From: Vicinamibacterales bacterium
Lineage (GTDB): Bacteria; Acidobacteriota; Vicinamibacteria; Vicinamibacterales; JAMQPK01
Assembly (NCBI GenBank): GCA_963832375.1
Contig: CAWHUA010000008.1
Location: 1,451,855 to 1,515,854, forward strand
Direction: 5' to 3'
Length of the DNA: 64,000 bases
The notes under the pieces are model-generated. The model saw only the letters and a list, made by a program, of their open reading frames with translations. It made no database searches and was not told the origin of the DNA. Both the position numbers and the translations under genes were made by a program. This document shows, piece by piece, positions 4,796 to 55,840 of the stretch. The first letter of the stretch is position 1. Every line of letters starts with the position of its first letter.

Positions 4796-6073
4796 TTGCC
4801 AGCTAACCATATTCCTTTCAATGGCTTACGAGAGACTCGCTGCGCGGTACATCGTTTGCGAAACGATTGCTGGGACAAACCACACAACTTGCCTGACACC
4901 TCGACACCACCCGTCGTCATCCTCGGCGGCTCCGTCAATGCGCTCTCGGTCGCGAGAAGCCTCGGCAGACGGGGCATCAGGATTTTTCTGTCGGCCTCCG
5001 AGGGGCGGCACGTCCAGTACTCGCGGTACTGCACGAAGGCGTTTCCGTTCGGCCGCAACATCAAGGGCTCGGATTTCTGGCGCGACCTGCTGCTCGGCCC
5101 GCGAGGCACCGAGCTGCGCGGCAGCGTCATCCTCGTCTGCAACGACGAGGCGGTTGGATTCGTCGCACGCAACCGGGCGGAGCTGTCCAGGCACTACGTG
5201 CTCGACGGCTCGGTCCCCGAACTGCAGCTGTCGATGCTCGACAAGCAGAAGACGCTCGCGCTGGCGGAATCGGTCAACGTGCACGCGCCGCGGTTCTGGC
5301 AGGTGGAAAACGCCGCGCAGCTGAACGCGATCGAAGGCGCGCTCACGTTCCCGCTCATCGTCAAGCCGCTCATCTCGCATCTGTTCCAGGCCAAGTTCGG
5401 CGGGCGGAAATATCTGACCGCGAGCACGCACACCGAAGTGCGCGCCGCGATGGAACGCGTCTGGGCGGCGGGCCTGCAGGCGATGATCTGCGAATGGATC
5501 CCCGGCCCCGATCATCGGTTGTCGAGCTACTACACCTACATCGATAAGCACGGCAGACCGGTTTTTCATTTCACCAAGAAAGTGATTCGCCGGTTTCCCA
5601 AGAACGAAGGCCTGACGTCGTACCACATGACCGACTGGGATCCGGAAGTCGCCGACGCGGGCCTGCGCTTTCTCTCGGGCATCAGGTACCGCGGGCTCGC
5701 CAACGTGGAGTTCAAGCGCGACGCTCGAGACGGACGCCTCAAGCTCGTCGAGTGCAACGCGCGGTTTACCGCGCCGCAGGAACTGTTCGTGCGATGCGGT
5801 CTCGATACGGCGTCCCTCATCTACAACGATCTGGTGGGCCTCCCGCTGCCGGAGAACTTCGACTACAAGCAGGGCGTCAGGCTGTGGTACCCGTGGCGCG
5901 ATTTCATGGCCTTCCGTCAGCTCAACCGGATGGGCGAGCTCACGTTCGGCGAATGGATCAAGAGCGTATGGCACTGGCAGGCGCTGCCCTACTTTCACCC
6001 GACCGATCCCATGCCGACGATTGTGCCCGCACTGATGGCGCTGAGAGGTCGGCTGCAGTTCGCGAGGCCGTAG
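4796..6073 (+). CDS. ATP-grasp family carboxylate-amine ligase
   Basis: 425-aa ORF. N-terminal PPVVILGGSVNALSVARSLGRRGIRIFL (pre-ATP-grasp Rossmann-like), then PLIVKP...; ICEWIPG...; ANVEFKRDARDGRLKLVECNARF, typical of the ATP-grasp Mg/ATP site. Confidence 0.7.
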   Translation: MPANHIPFNGLRETRCAVHRLRNDCWDKPHNLPDTSTPPVVILGGSVNALSVARSLGRRGIRIFLSASEGRHVQYSRYCTKAFPFGRNIKGSDFWRDLLLGPRGTELRGSVILVCNDEAVGFVARNRAELSRHYVLDGSVPELQLSMLDKQKTLALAESVNVHAPRFWQVENAAQLNAIEGALTFPLIVKPLISHLFQAKFGGRKYLTASTHTEVRAAMERVWAAGLQAMICEWIPGPDHRLSSYYTYIDKHGRPVFHFTKKVIRRFPKNEGLTSYHMTDWDPEVADAGLRFLSGIRYRGLANVEFKRDARDGRLKLVECNARFTAPQELFVRCGLDTASLIYNDLVGLPLPENFDYKQGVRLWYPWRDFMAFRQLNRMGELTFGEWIKSVWHWQALPYFHPTDPMPTIVPALMALRGRLQFARP

Positions 6074-6206
6074 GTTCGTGGGATGGTGAGGTTCGTGGGT
6101 TCGTTGAGTTCGTCAGGTTCGTGGAGTTCGTCGGGTTCGTAGAGTTCGCGAACCGACGAACCGACGAACTTTACGAACTCTACGAACCCTACGAACTTTA
6201 CGAACC
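6074..6206. repeat. GGTTCGT/ACGAACC short-tandem-repeat inverted array (locus A)
   Basis: 8 GTTCG(T/C) units at 6074, 6091, 6099, 6108, 6117, 6126, 6135 and 6144. These are followed by 7 CGAAC units at 6149, 6156, 6164, 6173, 6182, 6191 and 6200. The centre is TTCGCGAA (6145-6152). The array fills the gap between two convergent stop codons. Confidence 0.9.
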
Positions 6207-6211
6207 GGGGA

Positions 6212-7294
6212 CTACGCTGCTCGGTTGGTCCATGGTGTCGAGACGCCAAGCTCGGCGGCGGTCTCGGTGAGCGTCTTGATCAGGTAATCCGGAATCGCAA
6301 TACCCGATCGGGTCTGCTCGTCGGCGCACTTCAGCCGGGCGTCTCCGGGAAGATTCACGGACTCGAAACCATCGCGCGGTGCAACCGCCGTCAGGGCGAG
6401 GAGCAGCCCTTCCAGGCGGTCTGCGAATTCTTCGAACGGAAGGAATCGCGCGATGTCGATGGCCACGAAGAGATGGCCGCAGCGCGTGTGGCGGTTCAGG
6501 TCGCGGAAGACGGATCCGACCTCGGGGGCGACGGCCGCGCCCGTCAGCACGCCGCTGAGGATTTCGACGAGCAGGCCGAGGCAATACCCTTTCGCGCCCG
6601 CGGCGGGCAGCAGGCAGCCGCCGCCGTCGACTTCGCCGGGGTCGGTTGTCGGATTGCCGTGGCTGTCGAGCGCGATGCCTTCGGGAAGCGAACGGCCCAG
6701 GCGTCGTGCGTGGCTGACCATCGAGCCCGCCGAGGCGCCGGTCGCGAGATCGATCACGAGCGGCGGCGCGTTCCGGCGGGGACTGGAGAAGGCGAACGGG
6801 TTCGTTCCGAGCAGCCGGTGACGTCCACCGTGCGGAGCGACCTTCGGCATCGAGTTCGAGTATGAGAGACCAATCAAACCTTCATCGGCGGCCCGCGCGG
6901 CATAGTAGCCCGCCGCACCAAAGTGATTGGAGTCTTTCACCGCGGCGATGCCCACTCCTGTCTCACGCGCGAGCTGAATCGCCCGATCCATCGCCATGCG
7001 TCCGGCAATCTGACCGAAGCCATGTTTCGCGTCGAGCGTGCCCGTCGACGGCCCCGTGCGTTCCCATTGCATGCCGGCCGGTGAGCGCAGCAGTCCCAGC
7101 CGCAGCCGCTTCAGCAGAATGGGCAACAGATACAGACCCTGCGTCTGATGGCCGCGCACGTCGCACCACGCCAGCGTCTCGGCCAGCGCGTGAGCGTCTG
7201 CGGCCGGCACACCGGCCGCTATCGCGAGATCGCGGCCGAGCTGGACGAGCTCGTCGACCCGCAGTCGGACATCAACTGATTTCATTGCGGCCAT
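6212..7294 (-). CDS. Ldh_2 family (malate/L-lactate/sulfolactate-type) NAD(P)H oxidoreductase
   Basis: 360-aa ORF. Motifs: RGHQTQGLYLLPILLKRL...HGFGQIAG...SNHFGAAGYYA...GTNPFAF..P...PLVIDLATGASAG...KGYCLGLLVEILSG; typical Ldh_2 family. Confidence 0.8.
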   Translation of the reverse strand: MAAMKSVDVRLRVDELVQLGRDLAIAAGVPAADAHALAETLAWCDVRGHQTQGLYLLPILLKRLRLGLLRSPAGMQWERTGPSTGTLDAKHGFGQIAGRMAMDRAIQLARETGVGIAAVKDSNHFGAAGYYAARAADEGLIGLSYSNSMPKVAPHGGRHRLLGTNPFAFSSPRRNAPPLVIDLATGASAGSMVSHARRLGRSLPEGIALDSHGNPTTDPGEVDGGGCLLPAAGAKGYCLGLLVEILSGVLTGAAVAPEVGSVFRDLNRHTRCGHLFVAIDIARFLPFEEFADRLEGLLLALTAVAPRDGFESVNLPGDARLKCADEQTRSGIAIPDYLIKTLTETAAELGVSTPWTNRAA

Positions 7295-8685: not shown

Positions 8686-9750
8686 ATGGCAGCCATCACG
8701 AACGTCCTCGCGCGGATTGCCGGACGCAGCCTGTTCCCCGGGCGAAGCGCGAACGTCTCGCTTCACACCAGGCTGGCCGCACGCGTCGTCGAGGACCTCT
8801 CGCGCCATCTCCAGCGAAGCTGCCATCTCGACGGCATTCACCTGACGCGTACGGGCAGCCTCATCGTGCGTATACACGCCGATCGATCGTACGTGGCCAA
8901 GCTTCCGTTGTACGCCACCACCGAGCCGCGGCTGCGCCGGAGCGCGGACGCGTTGACAAGGCTCGCACAAGCGGAGTGGATGACGCCGTTTCTCGCCGGC
9001 CGATGCCCGGCCATCGTGCTGTCCGGGAAAGCCTCGGGGTCCTTCTACTCGATCGAGACCGCCGTGCCCGGGCAGGATGGCGCGTCCATTCTGAAAACCG
9101 GTGGCACCGCGGACGAGATGATCTTGTCGGCGGAACGATTTCTTTCGAAGCTGCAGAAGGCCTCGGCGAATCGGCAGTCGCACGGATGGCAGGAACACCT
9201 CAGTCGTGCCGTCACACGCGTATCCGGCCTGGCCGCGCGCGCCGGGGTCGAACGCGCCTACACCACGCTGATTGCCGATCTTCGCACGCGCCTGTCCGCG
9301 CGCCCGCTTCGCGCGGTGTACTCGCACGGCAATTTCTGGCTGGGGAATGCGCTGTTCGACACGGCGAACCAGCTGACAGGCGTGATCGACTGGGACTCGG
9401 CCGACCCCTGCGCACTGCCGGCGCTGGATCTGATCTATCTCGTCGTGCGAACCCACGGGCTGGCGCGCTCGACGAGCGTGGGCGAGGGGTTCGCGGACTG
9501 GATCGCGGCCGAATCGCTTCCCTTCCTGGATCAATGCGTGGCGCGCCATTTTCACGAGCTGTCGATTCCAACCGAGCTCGTGGTGCCGCTCGCCTACTGC
9601 AGCTGGATTCAGCACCTCGACGCCCACTGCCAGTTCCGCACGCCGGCGAGCCGCAAACGACAGTGGCTCGAGAAGAACGTCCGCGTACCGCTCGAGCACT
9701 GGGAGTGTTCTCCCGGTCCCAACGTGCAGCGGTGGCAGAGGGAACGATGA
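8686..9750 (+). CDS. APH/choline-kinase-fold phosphotransferase family protein with an atypical catalytic loop
   Basis: 354-aa ORF. The catalytic-loop region reads VYSHGNFWLGNALF followed by GVIDWDSA. This is the family pattern HGDxxxxN...IDWD, but with Asn (aat, 9331-9333) where the catalytic Asp is expected. Confidence 0.65.
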   Translation: MAAITNVLARIAGRSLFPGRSANVSLHTRLAARVVEDLSRHLQRSCHLDGIHLTRTGSLIVRIHADRSYVAKLPLYATTEPRLRRSADALTRLAQAEWMTPFLAGRCPAIVLSGKASGSFYSIETAVPGQDGASILKTGGTADEMILSAERFLSKLQKASANRQSHGWQEHLSRAVTRVSGLAARAGVERAYTTLIADLRTRLSARPLRAVYSHGNFWLGNALFDTANQLTGVIDWDSADPCALPALDLIYLVVRTHGLARSTSVGEGFADWIAAESLPFLDQCVARHFHELSIPTELVVPLAYCSWIQHLDAHCQFRTPASRKRQWLEKNVRVPLEHWECSPGPNVQRWQRER

Positions 9751-9798
9751 AGACGGACCGCCTGGTTAGCCCCGTCGAGGTCGACAAGTCCGCCCCCA

Positions 9799-9816
9799 GG
9801 CAGACTTCTGTCTGCC
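9799..9816 (+). terminator. Hairpin GGCAGAC-ttct-GTCTGCC, 49 nt after the APH-like stop
   Basis: Perfect 7-bp stem, extendable to 11 bp with one mismatch (CCCAGGCAGAC/GTCTGCCCGGG). No U-tract. Confidence 0.35.
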
Positions 9817-9943
9817 CGGGTACAGACGTCTTGGCGGTTGTGCACAGACGGACCAGTGAGTTTTCGCAGGAATTCAGCGGTTTTCGGCGTGTTTCCGGTA
9901 CGTACCGCTTTGGCGTGGGTCTTGAAGTATCGGAGGCCGTCAG

Positions 9944-10703
9944 ATGACACAACCTCTTGCGTTACATGATCCGCAGGTTCGCACCATCAGCGTGCTGCTC
10001 GTCTGCAACGAGCGCGTGATAAGCGCGGCGTTGCGCGCGCTGATTGACGGCCAGGATGGGATGACGGTCGTCGGCGAGGTCGATCGCACTGGACGCTGCG
10101 ATCGACGCAATTGCCTCTGTCCATCCTGACGTGACGATCCTGGATCCAGACAATTACAAGGGCAATGGCATCGCGGATTTGCTGCGTGCCGGCATGACCA
10201 AGACGCGCATCGTGCTCTTGACCGGCTCGCCGAACGCGACGCCGATTTCAGAGGCCCTCGAGAACGGCGCCGTTGGACTGGTGCTCAAGCAGCAGCCGCC
10301 GGAAGTGCTGATCAAGGCCATCATCAAGGTGTATGCCGGTGAGGTCTGGCTCGATCGGACGGCGACCGCGAGGCTGATTGCCGAGCTGTCCACGGCACCG
10401 GCTGTCGAGCCCGCCGACCCGGATGCCGCGCGCGTGGCGCTGCTGACCAAGCGCGAACGCCAGGTCGTGATGCTCGTCGGCGAAGGCCTGAGAAATTCCC
10501 AGATCGCGGATCGTCTGTGCATTACCGAAGTGACGGTCCGCAATCATTTGACTTCCACGTTCAGAAAGCTCGAGGTGGCGAATCGATTTCAGCTGGTCAT
10601 CTACGCATTTCAGCACGGGCTGGCGACGTTGCCGTCGCGCGTGAGCTCTCCCGCGACCATGCCCGCCGGGCGCGTGCTGGGATACCAGAAAAAGACCTCC
10701 TGA
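9944..10703 (+). pseudogene. NarL/FixJ (LuxR-HTH) type response regulator with an atypical receiver, interrupted by one apparent +1 frameshift
   Basis: The N-terminus (ORF 9944..10129, ...ISVLLVCNERVISAALRALIDGQDGMTVVGEV) continues in the next frame as ...LDAAIDAIASVHPDVTILDPD... (ORF 10131..10703). The C-terminal HTH reads LTKRERQVVMLVGEGLRNSQIADRLCITEVTVRNHLTSTFRKL. The junction lies at about 10080-10095. Length is 760 nt, i.e. 759+1. Confidence 0.7.
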
Positions 10704-16960: not shown

Positions 16961-18235
16961 ATGTCTCAGACACCCGCAATTGCCATTCGTGGCCTCGGCA
17001 AGCGATACCAACTGGGTGAGACGGTTTCTTCCAACACCCTGCGCGATGCTCTCACGGCCGGCGCCAGACGACTCGTCACGCGCGCTCGCGGGACGAGCTC
17101 ACGCCCGACTGACTTCTGGGCGTTGAAGGATGTCTCGTTCGAAGTGGCGCAAGGCGAGGTCGTTGGAATCATTGGCCATAACGGAGCGGGCAAAAGCACC
17201 CTCCTGAAGATCCTGAGCGGCATCACGGAGCCTACCGAAGGAGAAATTCGGGTACGGGGCCGTATCGGCGCACTCCTTGAAGTGGGCACGGGATTCCATC
17301 AGGAACTCTCAGGGCGTGAGAACATCTTCATGAACGGGGCTATCCTGGGCATGACGCAGGCGGATATTCGTCGCAAGTTCGACGAGATCGTGGCGTTCGC
17401 AGGGGTTGAACAGTTCCTTGACACGCCGGTAAAACGCTACTCGTCCGGCATGCTGTTGAGGCTCGGCTTCGCCGTCGCGGCACACCTGGAGCCGGAAATT
17501 CTCGTCATTGACGAAGTGCTCGCGGTCGGGGACGCCGAATTTCAGCGCAAGTGCTTAGGGAAAATCGAAGACGTGTCACAGTCGGGCAGAACGATCCTGT
17601 TCGTGTCGCACAACATGGCCGCGATTGAAGCGTTGTGCGCGAGGGCATTCTGCCTGAACAAGGGACGCGTCGCCTGCCACGGTCCGGTCACCGAAGTGAT
17701 ATCGAACTACCTCGCCCAGGACCCCCACCTCTCGACCAACGGGCAGCCGACGCAAGACACCTCAGGCCGGTTTTCCTTGCGGCTCGAATCGAGCAATGCC
17801 CTGCGGCCAGGCCTGTTCCGAACCGGCGATGACATTTCGATGTGGGTGACTCTCACGTCTGAACCAGAGCCACGGTCAGACCTCGAATTGGTGGTCTCTC
17901 TCCTCTCAAGTGCCAATGAGCGCATCATGACACTTGCCAATTCATACCAGGCAGCGCGCCTGATGCGTACTACTGATAACGCCGCACAATGCGTTATCAG
18001 GAACTGCCGGCTGTCGGCCGGCACGTATCGCGTCCTTCTGAAGGTATTCGACCATCACAAGAACGTGATTGCCAGGCTCGACAAACTGCGCATCACGATC
18101 GTTGAATCGGACTGCTACGGTACCGGCAAGGTCATGCCGCCCAAATTCGGACGCATCGTGCCCGAATGCGAGTGGCGCTACCATTCGATCCCGGCTCCCG
18201 TACACATGCAGCCCGATTCTGCCGCAACAGTGTAG
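16961..18235 (+). CDS. wzt: ABC polysaccharide exporter ATPase with a C-terminal glycan-terminus-binding-type extension
   Basis: Walker A GHNGAGKST, signature YSSGMLLRLGFA, Walker B ILVIDEVLAVGD, H-loop FVSHN. An extra ~170-aa beta-rich C-terminal domain is present, as in Wzt proteins. The ATG directly abuts the wzm stop. Confidence 0.85.
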   Translation: MSQTPAIAIRGLGKRYQLGETVSSNTLRDALTAGARRLVTRARGTSSRPTDFWALKDVSFEVAQGEVVGIIGHNGAGKSTLLKILSGITEPTEGEIRVRGRIGALLEVGTGFHQELSGRENIFMNGAILGMTQADIRRKFDEIVAFAGVEQFLDTPVKRYSSGMLLRLGFAVAAHLEPEILVIDEVLAVGDAEFQRKCLGKIEDVSQSGRTILFVSHNMAAIEALCARAFCLNKGRVACHGPVTEVISNYLAQDPHLSTNGQPTQDTSGRFSLRLESSNALRPGLFRTGDDISMWVTLTSEPEPRSDLELVVSLLSSANERIMTLANSYQAARLMRTTDNAAQCVIRNCRLSAGTYRVLLKVFDHHKNVIARLDKLRITIVESDCYGTGKVMPPKFGRIVPECEWRYHSIPAPVHMQPDSAATV

Positions 18236-48835: not shown

Positions 48836-48957
48836 AGGTTCGTCAGGTTCGTCAGGTTCGTCGGTTCGTCGGGTTCGTGAGGTTCGTCGGGCGCAGCCCG
48901 AACTACACGAACTACACGAACTACACGAACTACACGAACCCACGAACTTTACGAACC
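48836..48957. repeat. GGTTCGT/ACGAACC short-tandem-repeat inverted array (locus B)
   Basis: 6 GTTCGT units at 48838, 48847, 48856, 48864, 48873 and 48882. The central stem-loop is TCGGGC-gca-GCCCGA (48887-48901). Then 7 CGAAC units at 48899, 48907, 48916, 48925, 48934, 48942 and 48951, including four exact ACGAACTAC copies. It lies between convergent stops at 48825-48827 and 48960-48962. Confidence 0.9.
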
Positions 48958-48959
48958 AT

Positions 48960-50138
48960 TCAAACGCCCATCTGCTTCGCGATGAACGGAATCCCCCGCT
49001 TGCCCCAGAACTGGTGGTCCTCGGGAAACACTTCCTGTTCCACCAGGTCGGGCACGCCGAACACGCTGTAGATCTTCTTCACTTCCTCGAAGCTTGCGAT
49101 GCTCGCCCGAATCGGGAAGATGTTGTCCTTCTCGCCGGATTCGACGAACAACGGCCTGGGCGCGATGAGGCCCGCGATGTCGTGCATCTCGGCCCAGTTC
49201 AGAATGCCCGGTACGTAGTTGTCGATGCAGTGCGCGAGGCTGCCGATGCTGTCGCGAAACGTGTTCAGATAGCCGCTGACAAGCGCCACGCGGATGCGCG
49301 GGTCGAGCGCCGCCGAAAACACCGTCACGGTTCCGCCGCCTGAGATGCCCATGCAGCCGATGTGGCTCGAGTCGATCTCGGAACGCGTCGAAAGGTAGTC
49401 GATCGTCCGCATCACGTCCCACACCCGCCAGCCGACCATCGTCTCGCCGACGAGCAGCGCACCGCCCGCCGCCGGATCGCAGGCTTTGCGCCCCAGCCCC
49501 TGGCGTGCGTTGATGGGATCGCGGCGGCAGCCGAAGCCCATCGGCTCGATGGCCAGCGCAGCCATGCCCGCTTCAACAACCTGAATCGCGAAATCGTGCT
49601 GATAGCCGGCTTTGTCGCTGCGGTCGGCGCCCTGTTCGTCGATGCCGACGATGTCATCCACGCCGCGGCCGTGGCCGGGGACGCAGATCATCACGGGTGC
49701 CGGGCGGGGCGCATTCACTGGGAGGAGCAGATACGCGAGCACGCTGACGCCAGGCCGGCTGTCGAATACGATCTTTTCGCGGCTGTAACCCGGGAACGCG
49801 CGCGTCTCGAGCGTCACGGGACGAAGGGGCTGGCGTTCGGATGGAAAGCCGCCAATGAGCGCGGTCAGCTTCGATCCCAGCGTCCTCTGCCACTCCTCTG
49901 CCTCGGTGCGCGTTCGCGACTGGAAACGCAAACGCCGTGGCGCGACGGCGTAGCGGTCGTGCGTGTAGACCACAGGGTCGAACCGGCGATCGTCTACACC
50001 TGTGGTCACGCCGGTGAGGGGACCAATGTAACCCGGTGGTGTCGACGCTTGCGAAGACTGCGCCTGCAGACGCACGGTCGTCGACGCCGTCGCCGCGGCG
50101 GTCAGCCTGACGAGATCGCGACGCGACAAGTTAGCCAT
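48960..50138 (-). CDS. Tat-exported alpha/beta hydrolase (acetyl-esterase/dienelactone-hydrolase-like)
   Basis: 392 aa. Twin-arginine leader MANLSRRDLVRLTAAATAS, nucleophile elbow GCMGISGGG, and later HCIDNY. Confidence 0.7.
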   Translation of the reverse strand: MANLSRRDLVRLTAAATASTTVRLQAQSSQASTPPGYIGPLTGVTTGVDDRRFDPVVYTHDRYAVAPRRLRFQSRTRTEAEEWQRTLGSKLTALIGGFPSERQPLRPVTLETRAFPGYSREKIVFDSRPGVSVLAYLLLPVNAPRPAPVMICVPGHGRGVDDIVGIDEQGADRSDKAGYQHDFAIQVVEAGMAALAIEPMGFGCRRDPINARQGLGRKACDPAAGGALLVGETMVGWRVWDVMRTIDYLSTRSEIDSSHIGCMGISGGGTVTVFSAALDPRIRVALVSGYLNTFRDSIGSLAHCIDNYVPGILNWAEMHDIAGLIAPRPLFVESGEKDNIFPIRASIASFEEVKKIYSVFGVPDLVEQEVFPEDHQFWGKRGIPFIAKQMGV

Positions 50139-52178: not shown

Positions 52179-52181
52179 TAA

Positions 52182-52191
52182 GTTAATTAAC
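52182..52191. promoter_or_regulatory. Palindrome GTTAATTAAC within an AT-rich island (52179-52210) abutting the ArsR start codon; candidate operator/promoter
   Basis: Seen directly. TAAGTTAA is also directly repeated (52179-52186 and 52195-52202). There is no room for a Shine-Dalgarno, so the mRNA may be leaderless. Confidence 0.35.
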
Positions 52192-52263
52192 CTATAAGTT
52201 AAATACAACAGACGCCGGGGCGCCGTCAAGCGGTTTGTCGCGGTCGCGCCCGCAGCCGGTGGT

Positions 52264-52330
52264 CCGAACCCCACGAACCTTACGAACCTACGAACCCACG
52301 AACCTACGAACCTACGAACCTACGAACCCA
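52264..52330. repeat. Single-armed CGAACC tandem array (locus C; GGTTCG(T) in the sense of the upstream minus-strand gene)
   Basis: 8 CGAACC units at 52265, 52274, 52283, 52291, 52299, 52307, 52315 and 52323, with a period of 9 then 8 nt. The last units encode the final ..VGS* of the minus-strand gene. No complementary arm lies nearby. Confidence 0.9.
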
Positions 52331-55742: not shown

Positions 55743-55840
55743 ACCTGCCTCCTGTCACGGCGCGACTGAAGTCGCGCCCTACCGTCTGCCCTGTCCGACT
55801 GAAGTCGGGCCCTGCCGTTTTCCGCGACTGACGTCGCGCC

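Follow-up and report, generated by a model that had tools for sequence, protein, structure and literature searches.

In the 64-kb window (the whole stretch of DNA that was analysed), the gap between an unannotated plus-strand ORF and a convergent gene for an Ldh_2 family dehydrogenase is occupied by an array of very short repeats, here termed locus A (Table 1). The left arm contains GTTCGT at 6074, 6091, 6099, 6108, 6117, 6126 and 6135 and GTTCGC at 6144, and the right arm contains seven copies of CGAAC, at 6149, 6157, 6165, 6174, 6183, 6192 and 6201. This arrangement, reported in an initial annotation of the region, was reproduced by direct reading of the sequence and by a hexamer search. The arms abut core-to-core (GTTCG directly followed by CGAAC, GGTTCGAACC), with TTCGCGAA at the centre (6145-6152). 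As had also been described, the first GGTTCGT, at 6073, begins on the G of the TAG codon (6071-6073) that closes ORF 4796-6073, and the array ends at 6206, 5 nt short of the Ldh_2 stop codon at 6212-6214; the array thus constitutes the entire 138-nt gap between the two genes. The outer flanks are GGGGA and CCGTA, neither of which is a T or A run. The product of the upstream ORF had been labelled as an ATP-grasp protein, a designation that is not supported, as there is no Pfam match at E<=1e-3. Orthologues of this ORF in relatives are likewise without Pfam annotation. An exact look-up of the Ldh_2 protein of the window returned no record.

Table 1. Array arms and neighbouring genes in the window, and the content of the orthologous Ldh_2 junction in relatives
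Feature	Position	Strand	Identity to window Ldh_2	Description
Gene upstream of locus A left arm	4796..6073	+		425-codon ORF, GC3 0.83, stop TAG 6071-6073
Locus A left arm	6073..6148	+		8 units: GGTTCGT at 6073, one decayed, then seven at 6091-6148
Locus A right arm	6149..6206	-		7 units reading GTTCGT on the minus strand
Ldh_2 family dehydrogenase gene	6212..7294	-		Pfam Ldh_2, E=2.7e-102; stop 6212-6214 faces locus A right arm
Gene before locus B left arm	stop TAA 48825-48827	+		981 codons, Big_9/cadherin-domain
Locus B left arm	48836..48888	+		6 units; onset 10 nt past TAA 48825-48827
Locus B right arm	48899..48957	-		7 units; ends 2 nt before stop 48960-48962
Abhydrolase_7 gene facing locus B right arm	48960-50138	-		stop 48960-48962
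Locus C	52265..52330	-		single arm, 8 units, between two co-directional minus-strand genes
Ldh_2 junction, L119-121			94%	homologous two-arm array; other unit numbers and spacers, several decayed units
Ldh_2 junction, L326			83%	empty, genes abut
Ldh_2 junction, L123			about 79%	empty, genes abut
Ldh_2 junction, L122 and L124			about 79%	GTAG-type REP hairpins
Ldh_2 junction, L327	11095-11128		79%	canonical bidirectional terminator (TAAAAAAGGCTCCGGGAGCCTTTTTT): A-tract, GC stem, T-tract
Ldh_2 junction, L328	11092-11212		in 79% orthologue cluster	canonical bidirectional terminator

The same unit had been noted at two further places in the window, and both recurrences are real: 48836-48957 comprises two arms (locus B) and 52265-52330 a single arm (locus C). 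The window contains five arms at these three loci, and in each arm GGTTCGT reads in the sense of the gene that ends beside it, at -8 to +10 nt from the stop codon. Locus B lies between convergent genes and fills the whole 132-nt gap, its arms enclosing a small CGGGC-GCA-GCCCG hairpin. The neighbours of locus C are an AMP-binding, Aas-like gene and an ArsR-family regulator, as judged by Pfam. The AMP-binding gene ends in AAVGS, and its last two codons and TAG stop (52320-52322) lie within the array (GTG GGT TCG TAG). Homologues of this protein end in LAAAS at about equal length. This indicates that no more than the final codons are replaced by the array, which provides the stop. An AT-rich quasi-palindrome at 52179-52215 (ttaagttaattaacctataagttaa), just upstream of the ArsR-family gene and between that gene and the array, is probably the operator of the regulator.

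A search of the window with a three-unit pattern gave 21 matches, against none in 100 shuffles. When one mismatch per core was allowed, a single further run was found at 17366-17400, within a predicted ORF (20 shuffles gave none); it was considered as a decayed array and was judged to be a chance near-match. The hexamer is not enriched outside the arrays, with 83 copies in the window in total, 34 of them in arrays, compared with 43.6 expected. Tandem Repeats Finder reported periods of 8-9 for the arms and higher-order periods of 18, 24 and 26. The other convergent junctions of the window have gaps of 0-47 nt and carry no such element. At 55759-55840, between two co-directional minus-strand genes, three GTAG-type REP hairpins (GGCGCGACTGAAGTCGCGCCCTAC and two variants) are clustered, and REPs of this type also fill the Ldh_2 junction in the relative L122 (at 11109).

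Locus A is predicted to fold with an energy of -93.5 kcal/mol as RNA (z=-8.7) and -52.3 kcal/mol as DNA (z=-8.6), and locus B with -70.6 kcal/mol as RNA (z=-8.8); both strands of the two-arm loci fold. The single arm of locus C (-40.0 kcal/mol as RNA, z=+1.5) folds no better than its own shuffles. Locus A had been described as a beaded hairpin lacking a U-tract. The hairpin and the lack of a U-tract were both borne out, since neither side has a T or A tract and a terminator scan of 5800-6500 gave no site, but 'beaded' understates the pairing, as the RNA arms pair almost continuously by means of G-U pairs. A test of whether G-U pairing consistently favours folding of the RNA of one strand was negative. 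Permutation of the spacers within arms, or shuffling of their bases, did not weaken the hairpin (z mostly between -1.4 and +0.7). As the MFE is unchanged by either treatment, the energy of the hairpin comes from the cores alone, and co-adaptation of the spacers for pairing was rejected.

The repeat unit and its distribution

Locus A belongs, as a single copy, to a dispersed family of non-coding repeats that occurs in a subgroup of the Vicinamibacterales (Acidobacteriota). The family is lineage-restricted, hypervariable and anchored at stop codons, and usually has two head-to-head arms. Its unit was characterized from 244 units pooled from 35 arms among the matches listed; GTTCG itself was the search core by which units were found, and conservation was scored outside it. 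The unit is R-GTTCGT-V-R(R), with a period of 9 in 71% and of 8 in 25%, and an oligomer of it can be written as (GGUUCGUNN)8. The base preceding the core is a purine in 98% of units (G 74%, A 24%) and the base following GTTCG is T in 86%; the next position is shared equally by A, C and G, with purines after it. Spacers after GTTCG measure 4 nt in 71% of units and 3 nt in a further 25%, so that 96% have 3-4 nt. Arms contain 4-12 units, and sense arms have a G+T content of 75% and a GC skew of +0.43. CGTAG and CGTCG each occur after only 18% of the cores. A link of the unit to the GTAG/CGTC tags of REPs was dropped as unsupported, as was a likeness of GGTTCG to the tRNA T-arm.

Neighbouring spacers are identical in 40 of 174 cases, compared with 27.5 +/- 3.6 in within-arm shuffles, an excess that points to local duplication of units by slippage. 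Local runs are present, for example TGTA four times in one arm of locus B and TAG four times in locus C; as each arm has its own runs, the arms evolve independently. Comparison of loci revealed no conserved flanks, terminal inverted repeats or shared spacer series, and the boundaries of the array differ at every locus.

Arrays of the same kind, with an invariant core, heterogeneous 3-4-nt spacers, mixed 8/9 periods and often a facing arm, were found at at least eight loci in at least six Vicinamibacterales MAGs in a scan of one genome per species, which also detected weaker relatives in other Acidobacteriota. A four-unit scan of metagenomes added at least about 15 soil contigs of 60-66% GC. 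The loci from the genome and metagenome scans are a sample of the array loci and not a total. Matches were sorted by spacer heterogeneity and GC content from unrelated perfect 9-bp repeats, and all of the viral matches listed are perfect 9-bp tandem repeats of this unrelated kind. On this basis, among the matches listed, the family appears to be confined to Vicinamibacterales MAGs and soil contigs of 60-66% GC, with no viral contigs. Perfect 9-bp tandem repeats containing GTTCGT occur in many unrelated bacteria and viruses (L125-L325), many of them inside long open reading frames. Such repeats represent something different, and their abundance overwhelms simple pattern searches. In Caulobacteraceae/Phenylobacterium, three GTTCGTGTG units face three inverted copies (L020 7225-7437, L029 6908-7004, L039 6219-6335, L048 1048-1126), the facing copies being 30-200 bp apart and mostly in the opposite (divergent) order. 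These copies look like another type of conserved site, one without relation to the arrays of the Vicinamibacterales.

The initial annotation did not recognize the array as a member of any described family, and the searches agree with this. Rfam gave no match at gathering scores in the whole window. At E<=10, the region 5950-6350 matched only sub-threshold models of miRNA-precursor hairpins, such as MIR2084 (34.8 bits, with 100 needed). The double-unit string was not found in the literature searched, in which single-unit strings matched only primer noise, and a search of the literature on Vicinamibacter intergenic repeats found nothing relevant. Neither Rfam nor the literature searched contained a description that combines a very short core, free spacers, head-to-head arms, stop-codon anchoring and a dispersed family.

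Genes in relatives were called crudely, by ORF length and GC3, with key cases checked by Pfam. Nearly all of the approximately 28 loci among the matches listed adjoin a stop codon, and about 25 gene-end-adjacent arms, again among the matches listed, have their first unit at -17 to +22 nt relative to the stop. Where the flanking genes are co-directional, the array keeps to within 18 nt of the upstream stop, while 14-572 nt are left free downstream; multiplying the odds of the individual loci gives a rough probability of about 1e-7 that random placement would produce such proximity. A single one of the approximately 28 listed loci, a small array, is situated between divergent starts. Every one of the 12 independent two-arm loci among the matches listed has its GTTCG arm ahead of its CGAAC arm, and none has the reverse; this order is one fact viewed from both sides of a palindrome. 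Single arms, in which no hairpin is possible, make up about half of the loci and are about as common as paired arms. Among the matches listed, about eight are in the sense orientation after a stop and four are antisense (L036, L197, L193 and L147). The proposal that each gene end reads as a stop codon followed by GGUUCGU repeats holds for all five arms of the window and describes a strong tendency in the relatives, but fails there as a law, with about 4 of 12 single arms being antisense.

A stop codon is present in 45% of sense arm-frames compared with 19% of antisense arm-frames. The arrays are not, as a rule, multi-frame stop arrays, and this idea was rejected, since all three frames are closed in only 4 of 35 sense arms. 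Stops supplied by the array were found at locus C, in L119 (ending SGS) and in L194 (ending GVRRVR); in L194, the DNA_alkylation domain is complete before the array-encoded tail. At 9508-10219, L194 also has two arms 560 nt apart, a plus arm of 10 units and a minus arm of 8; a 23S_rRNA_IVP (four-helix-bundle) gene lies in between, and each arm comes after the stop of a different flanking gene. Among the few genes flanked by arrays that were examined with Pfam, the only other was an unannotated ORF (L034); a mobilizing gene flanked by arrays was looked for and none was recognized. In L193 (14-826, minus strand), the ORF of an ABC transporter ATPase reads through an antisense array and acquires an (NPT)n-type C-terminal tail that ends in NLTNPTNLTNPTNPTNPTNPTNPTNQ or ANLTNPTNLTNPTNPTNPTNPTNPTNQ before the stop, and the start codon of the next gene lies a few bases past this tail.

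Orthologous junctions and comparison with known repeats

The Ldh_2 junction was compared in seven relatives whose orthologues have conserved synteny (Table 1). The Ldh_2 orthologue cluster includes a protein on contig CAVXIR010000007 of a Vicinamibacterales MAG, where synteny is also conserved, and a homologue of the AMP-binding protein of locus C is named Vicinamibacterales by NCBI; both place the window in this order. The locus A array is absent from all of these junctions at <=84% identity. The presence of U-tract terminators at this junction in L327 and L328 indicates that the lineage does use them, and the genome of L328 has arrays elsewhere (L037). No arrays were found in 105 kb of syntenic DNA of the relatives, compared with three loci in the 64-kb window. 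The array of locus C is absent from a homologue of 94% identity, where the gene neighbourhood differs. Together, the comparisons at Ldh_2 and locus C suggest that the arrays are young, are quickly reshaped and are interchangeable with terminators or REPs in the same slot.

In the description of Di Nocera et al. (2013, PMC3733652), a REP unit carries an unpaired tag, GTAG or CGTC, and is an imperfect palindrome of 20-40 bp with a stem of 5-13 bp and a loop of 2-20. The arrays resemble REP/BIME/REPIN elements in being extragenic and high-copy, in lying after gene ends and between convergent genes, in the predominance of head-to-head dimers that form large hairpins, and in gain and loss between close relatives; roles in termination and mRNA stabilization have been proposed for the REP elements (PMC3733652). 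As with REPs, the arrays are multi-copy and head-to-head after gene ends, at three loci in 64 kb and at about 28 in relatives (among the matches listed). Unlike REPs, their unit is 8-9 bp and not self-complementary, pairing occurs only between whole arms, the number of copies per arm is variable (4-12), and no sequence of the whole element is conserved. The array was not accepted as a REP in the structural sense, as the unit contains no internal stem and a single arm does not fold. Genuine GTAG-REPs coexist with the arrays in the window (55759-55840) and hold the Ldh_2 junction in L122 and L124. REPs have been reported to act as combined terminators and stabilizers, and to accompany higher expression of both convergent genes.

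Classification as a MITE, a conserved element bounded by terminal inverted repeats and a target-site duplication, was also rejected, as there is no conserved flank or shared spacer series and the boundaries differ per locus, and so was classification as a CRISPR array, the repeat core being 6-7 bp and the spacers 2-5 nt rather than repeats of 23-50 bp with unique spacers of similar length. The arrays do fall within the definition of a minisatellite or VNTR, in which the number of head-to-tail units varies among related genomes: at 94% protein identity, the junction arrays of L119-121 have other unit counts, spacers and decayed units than that of the window.

The STRR heptamer arrays of heterocystous cyanobacteria are intergenic tandem repeats with a very short unit, dispersed and confined to one lineage, and in these respects the present arrays are similar. 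The STRR differ in being exact 7-mers of another sequence in another phylum, and we know of no STRR with a core-plus-free-spacer design, obligatory head-to-head arms or stop-codon anchoring. The MIRU of mycobacteria are oriented tandem repeats at gene junctions, with ends that overlap the flanking stop and start codons and a copy number that varies between strains. The arrays share the orientation, the position at gene junctions, the overlap with gene ends and the variable copy number, but MIRU units are long (46-101 bp), contain small ORFs and do not occur in inverted arms. TRAP binds (G/U)AG repeats with 2-3-nt spacers, and omega/ParG-type repressors bind arrays of direct and inverted 7-8-bp boxes. 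These sites are like the arrays in their short conserved core, 6-11 repeats and short free spacers and, for the omega/ParG boxes, the combination of direct and inverted copies. Unlike the arrays, each is a lone regulatory site or a plasmid centromere whose protein partner is known, and they do not form a dispersed gene-end family. Liang et al., in 2015, reportedly found ribosome stalling where a REP lies no more than about 15 nt from a stop codon.

Possible origin and function

We tentatively favour the view that the arrays are a REP/BIME-like 3'-end hairpin element which grows by unit slippage, an explanation that falls somewhat short of an even chance. Each convergent transcript would carry a G/U-rich arm directly after its stop codon and then the complement of that arm, and a hairpin with an energy of roughly -70 to -94 kcal/mol could form from either strand. 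Such a hairpin may halt 3' exonucleases and hinder transcription from running on into the antisense strand of the facing gene. Arrays would expand and shrink by duplication and loss of units, with quick gain and loss of whole arrays. Selection would favour the sense orientation beside a gene end, since sense arms supply stops (TAG, TGA or TAA follows about a third of cores), while antisense arms are mostly open and are translated as a tail. Turnover of both units and arrays is evident from the sequence comparisons, and the spread of the arrays is probably largely selfish. This interpretation is supported by the canonical bidirectional terminators and GTAG-REP hairpins at the same Ldh_2 junction in relatives, and by the non-random nature of the arrays, the stable two-arm folds, the filling of whole gaps and the anchoring at stops. 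Counting against it, about half of the loci are single arms that have perfect cores and are unable to fold, so the hairpin cannot be what keeps the cores intact. The lack of a U-tract, the spacers untuned for pairing, the other convergent junctions of the window without the element and the four antisense single arms also count against it.

The position between convergent genes and the strong hairpin would also suit a canonical intrinsic (Rho-independent) bidirectional terminator. This is very improbable, given the absence of a T or A tract on both sides and of any terminator-like site in the scan, a stem of about 60 pairs compared with 5-14, the existence of single-arm copies, and the different appearance of the A-tract/stem/T-tract form at the same junction in relatives; by definition, a structure with no U-tract after a short GC-rich stem-loop is not of this class, and the identification was rejected. 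The cores of single arms, which are as perfect as those of paired arms, are more readily accommodated if the arrays are functionless selfish or neutral minisatellites, in which intact GTTCGT cores promote replication slippage and the hairpin is a by-product. Units with a mutated core would stop being copied, so that cores remain uniform while spacers drift, and position and orientation would be filtered by what the genes tolerate. The separate local duplications of each arm (the TGTA and TAG runs), the lack of spacer co-adaptation between arms and of conserved flanks and terminal inverted repeats, the absence of the arrays of loci A and C in relatives, which reflects rapid gain and loss, and the array-free 105 kb are all consistent with this. 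It is nevertheless an unlikely explanation, albeit one with a real claim to consideration, as it does not account for the same core at many non-orthologous loci in several genomes, for siting within about 20 nt of a stop despite hundreds of free bases, or for constant 3-4 nt spacers in 96% of units.

The regularity of the unit could also reflect a multivalent binding platform, analogous to the TRAP and omega/ParG sites, in which a putative oligomeric protein recognizes the GGUUCGU (RNA) or GTTCGT (DNA) core once per unit. Such recognition, which might serve termination, RNA stability or nucleoid organization, among others, from stop codons or 3' UTRs, is rather improbable. The constraint on the bases around the core (T after it in 86%, R before it in 98%, the next position free among A, C and G), the narrow 8-9-nt spacing in 96% of units, the 4-12 units per arm, the persistence of perfect cores in arms that are unable to pair, and the asymmetry of the sense strand in G+T content and GC skew argue for a platform of this kind. 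Set against these, no candidate protein was identified, a binder of double-stranded DNA loses helical phasing where periods of 8 and 9 bp are mixed, antisense single arms exist, the motif is not enriched outside the arrays, and the arrays are dispensable at orthologous sites. It is highly doubtful that the arrays were written by templated addition of repeats to 3' ends at breaks just downstream of stop codons. A telomerase-like activity (a reverse transcriptase or primase-polymerase slipping on a short template) would add GGTTCGT and 1-3 variable bases; extension of both 3' ends of one break, followed by joining, would place the GTTCG arm first and make the reverse order impossible, and would also give core-to-core arm junctions and irregular spacers. 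A one-sided event would leave a single sense arm.

The arrays would represent a structurally distinct class of bacterial extragenic repeats, forming long hairpins of a very short core and free spacers at stop codons, in an order of soil bacteria that is abundant and barely cultured. If the 3'-end role suggested by the REP/BIME-like explanation is correct, they would be a third way of ending or protecting transcripts at the same junction, beside canonical terminators and REPs, and the three solutions would be interchangeable over short evolutionary distances. The arrays also bear on gene annotation, as they overwrite the last codons of genes and supply stop codons, and antisense arrays can create spurious or real C-terminal repeat tails.

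In several contigs the arrays adjoin or enclose a GC-rich REP-like or terminator-like hairpin (L104 1529-1600, L036 7530-7560, L035 5480-5505 and L227 1155-1180), an example being GTAGGGCGGGTCT...AGACCCGCC in L104. It may be that the hairpins were there first and that arms arose alongside them. The arrays would serve as hypervariable strain markers for the Vicinamibacterales. In 4 of 10 short-read contigs checked, they lie at the contig end or within 100 nt of it.
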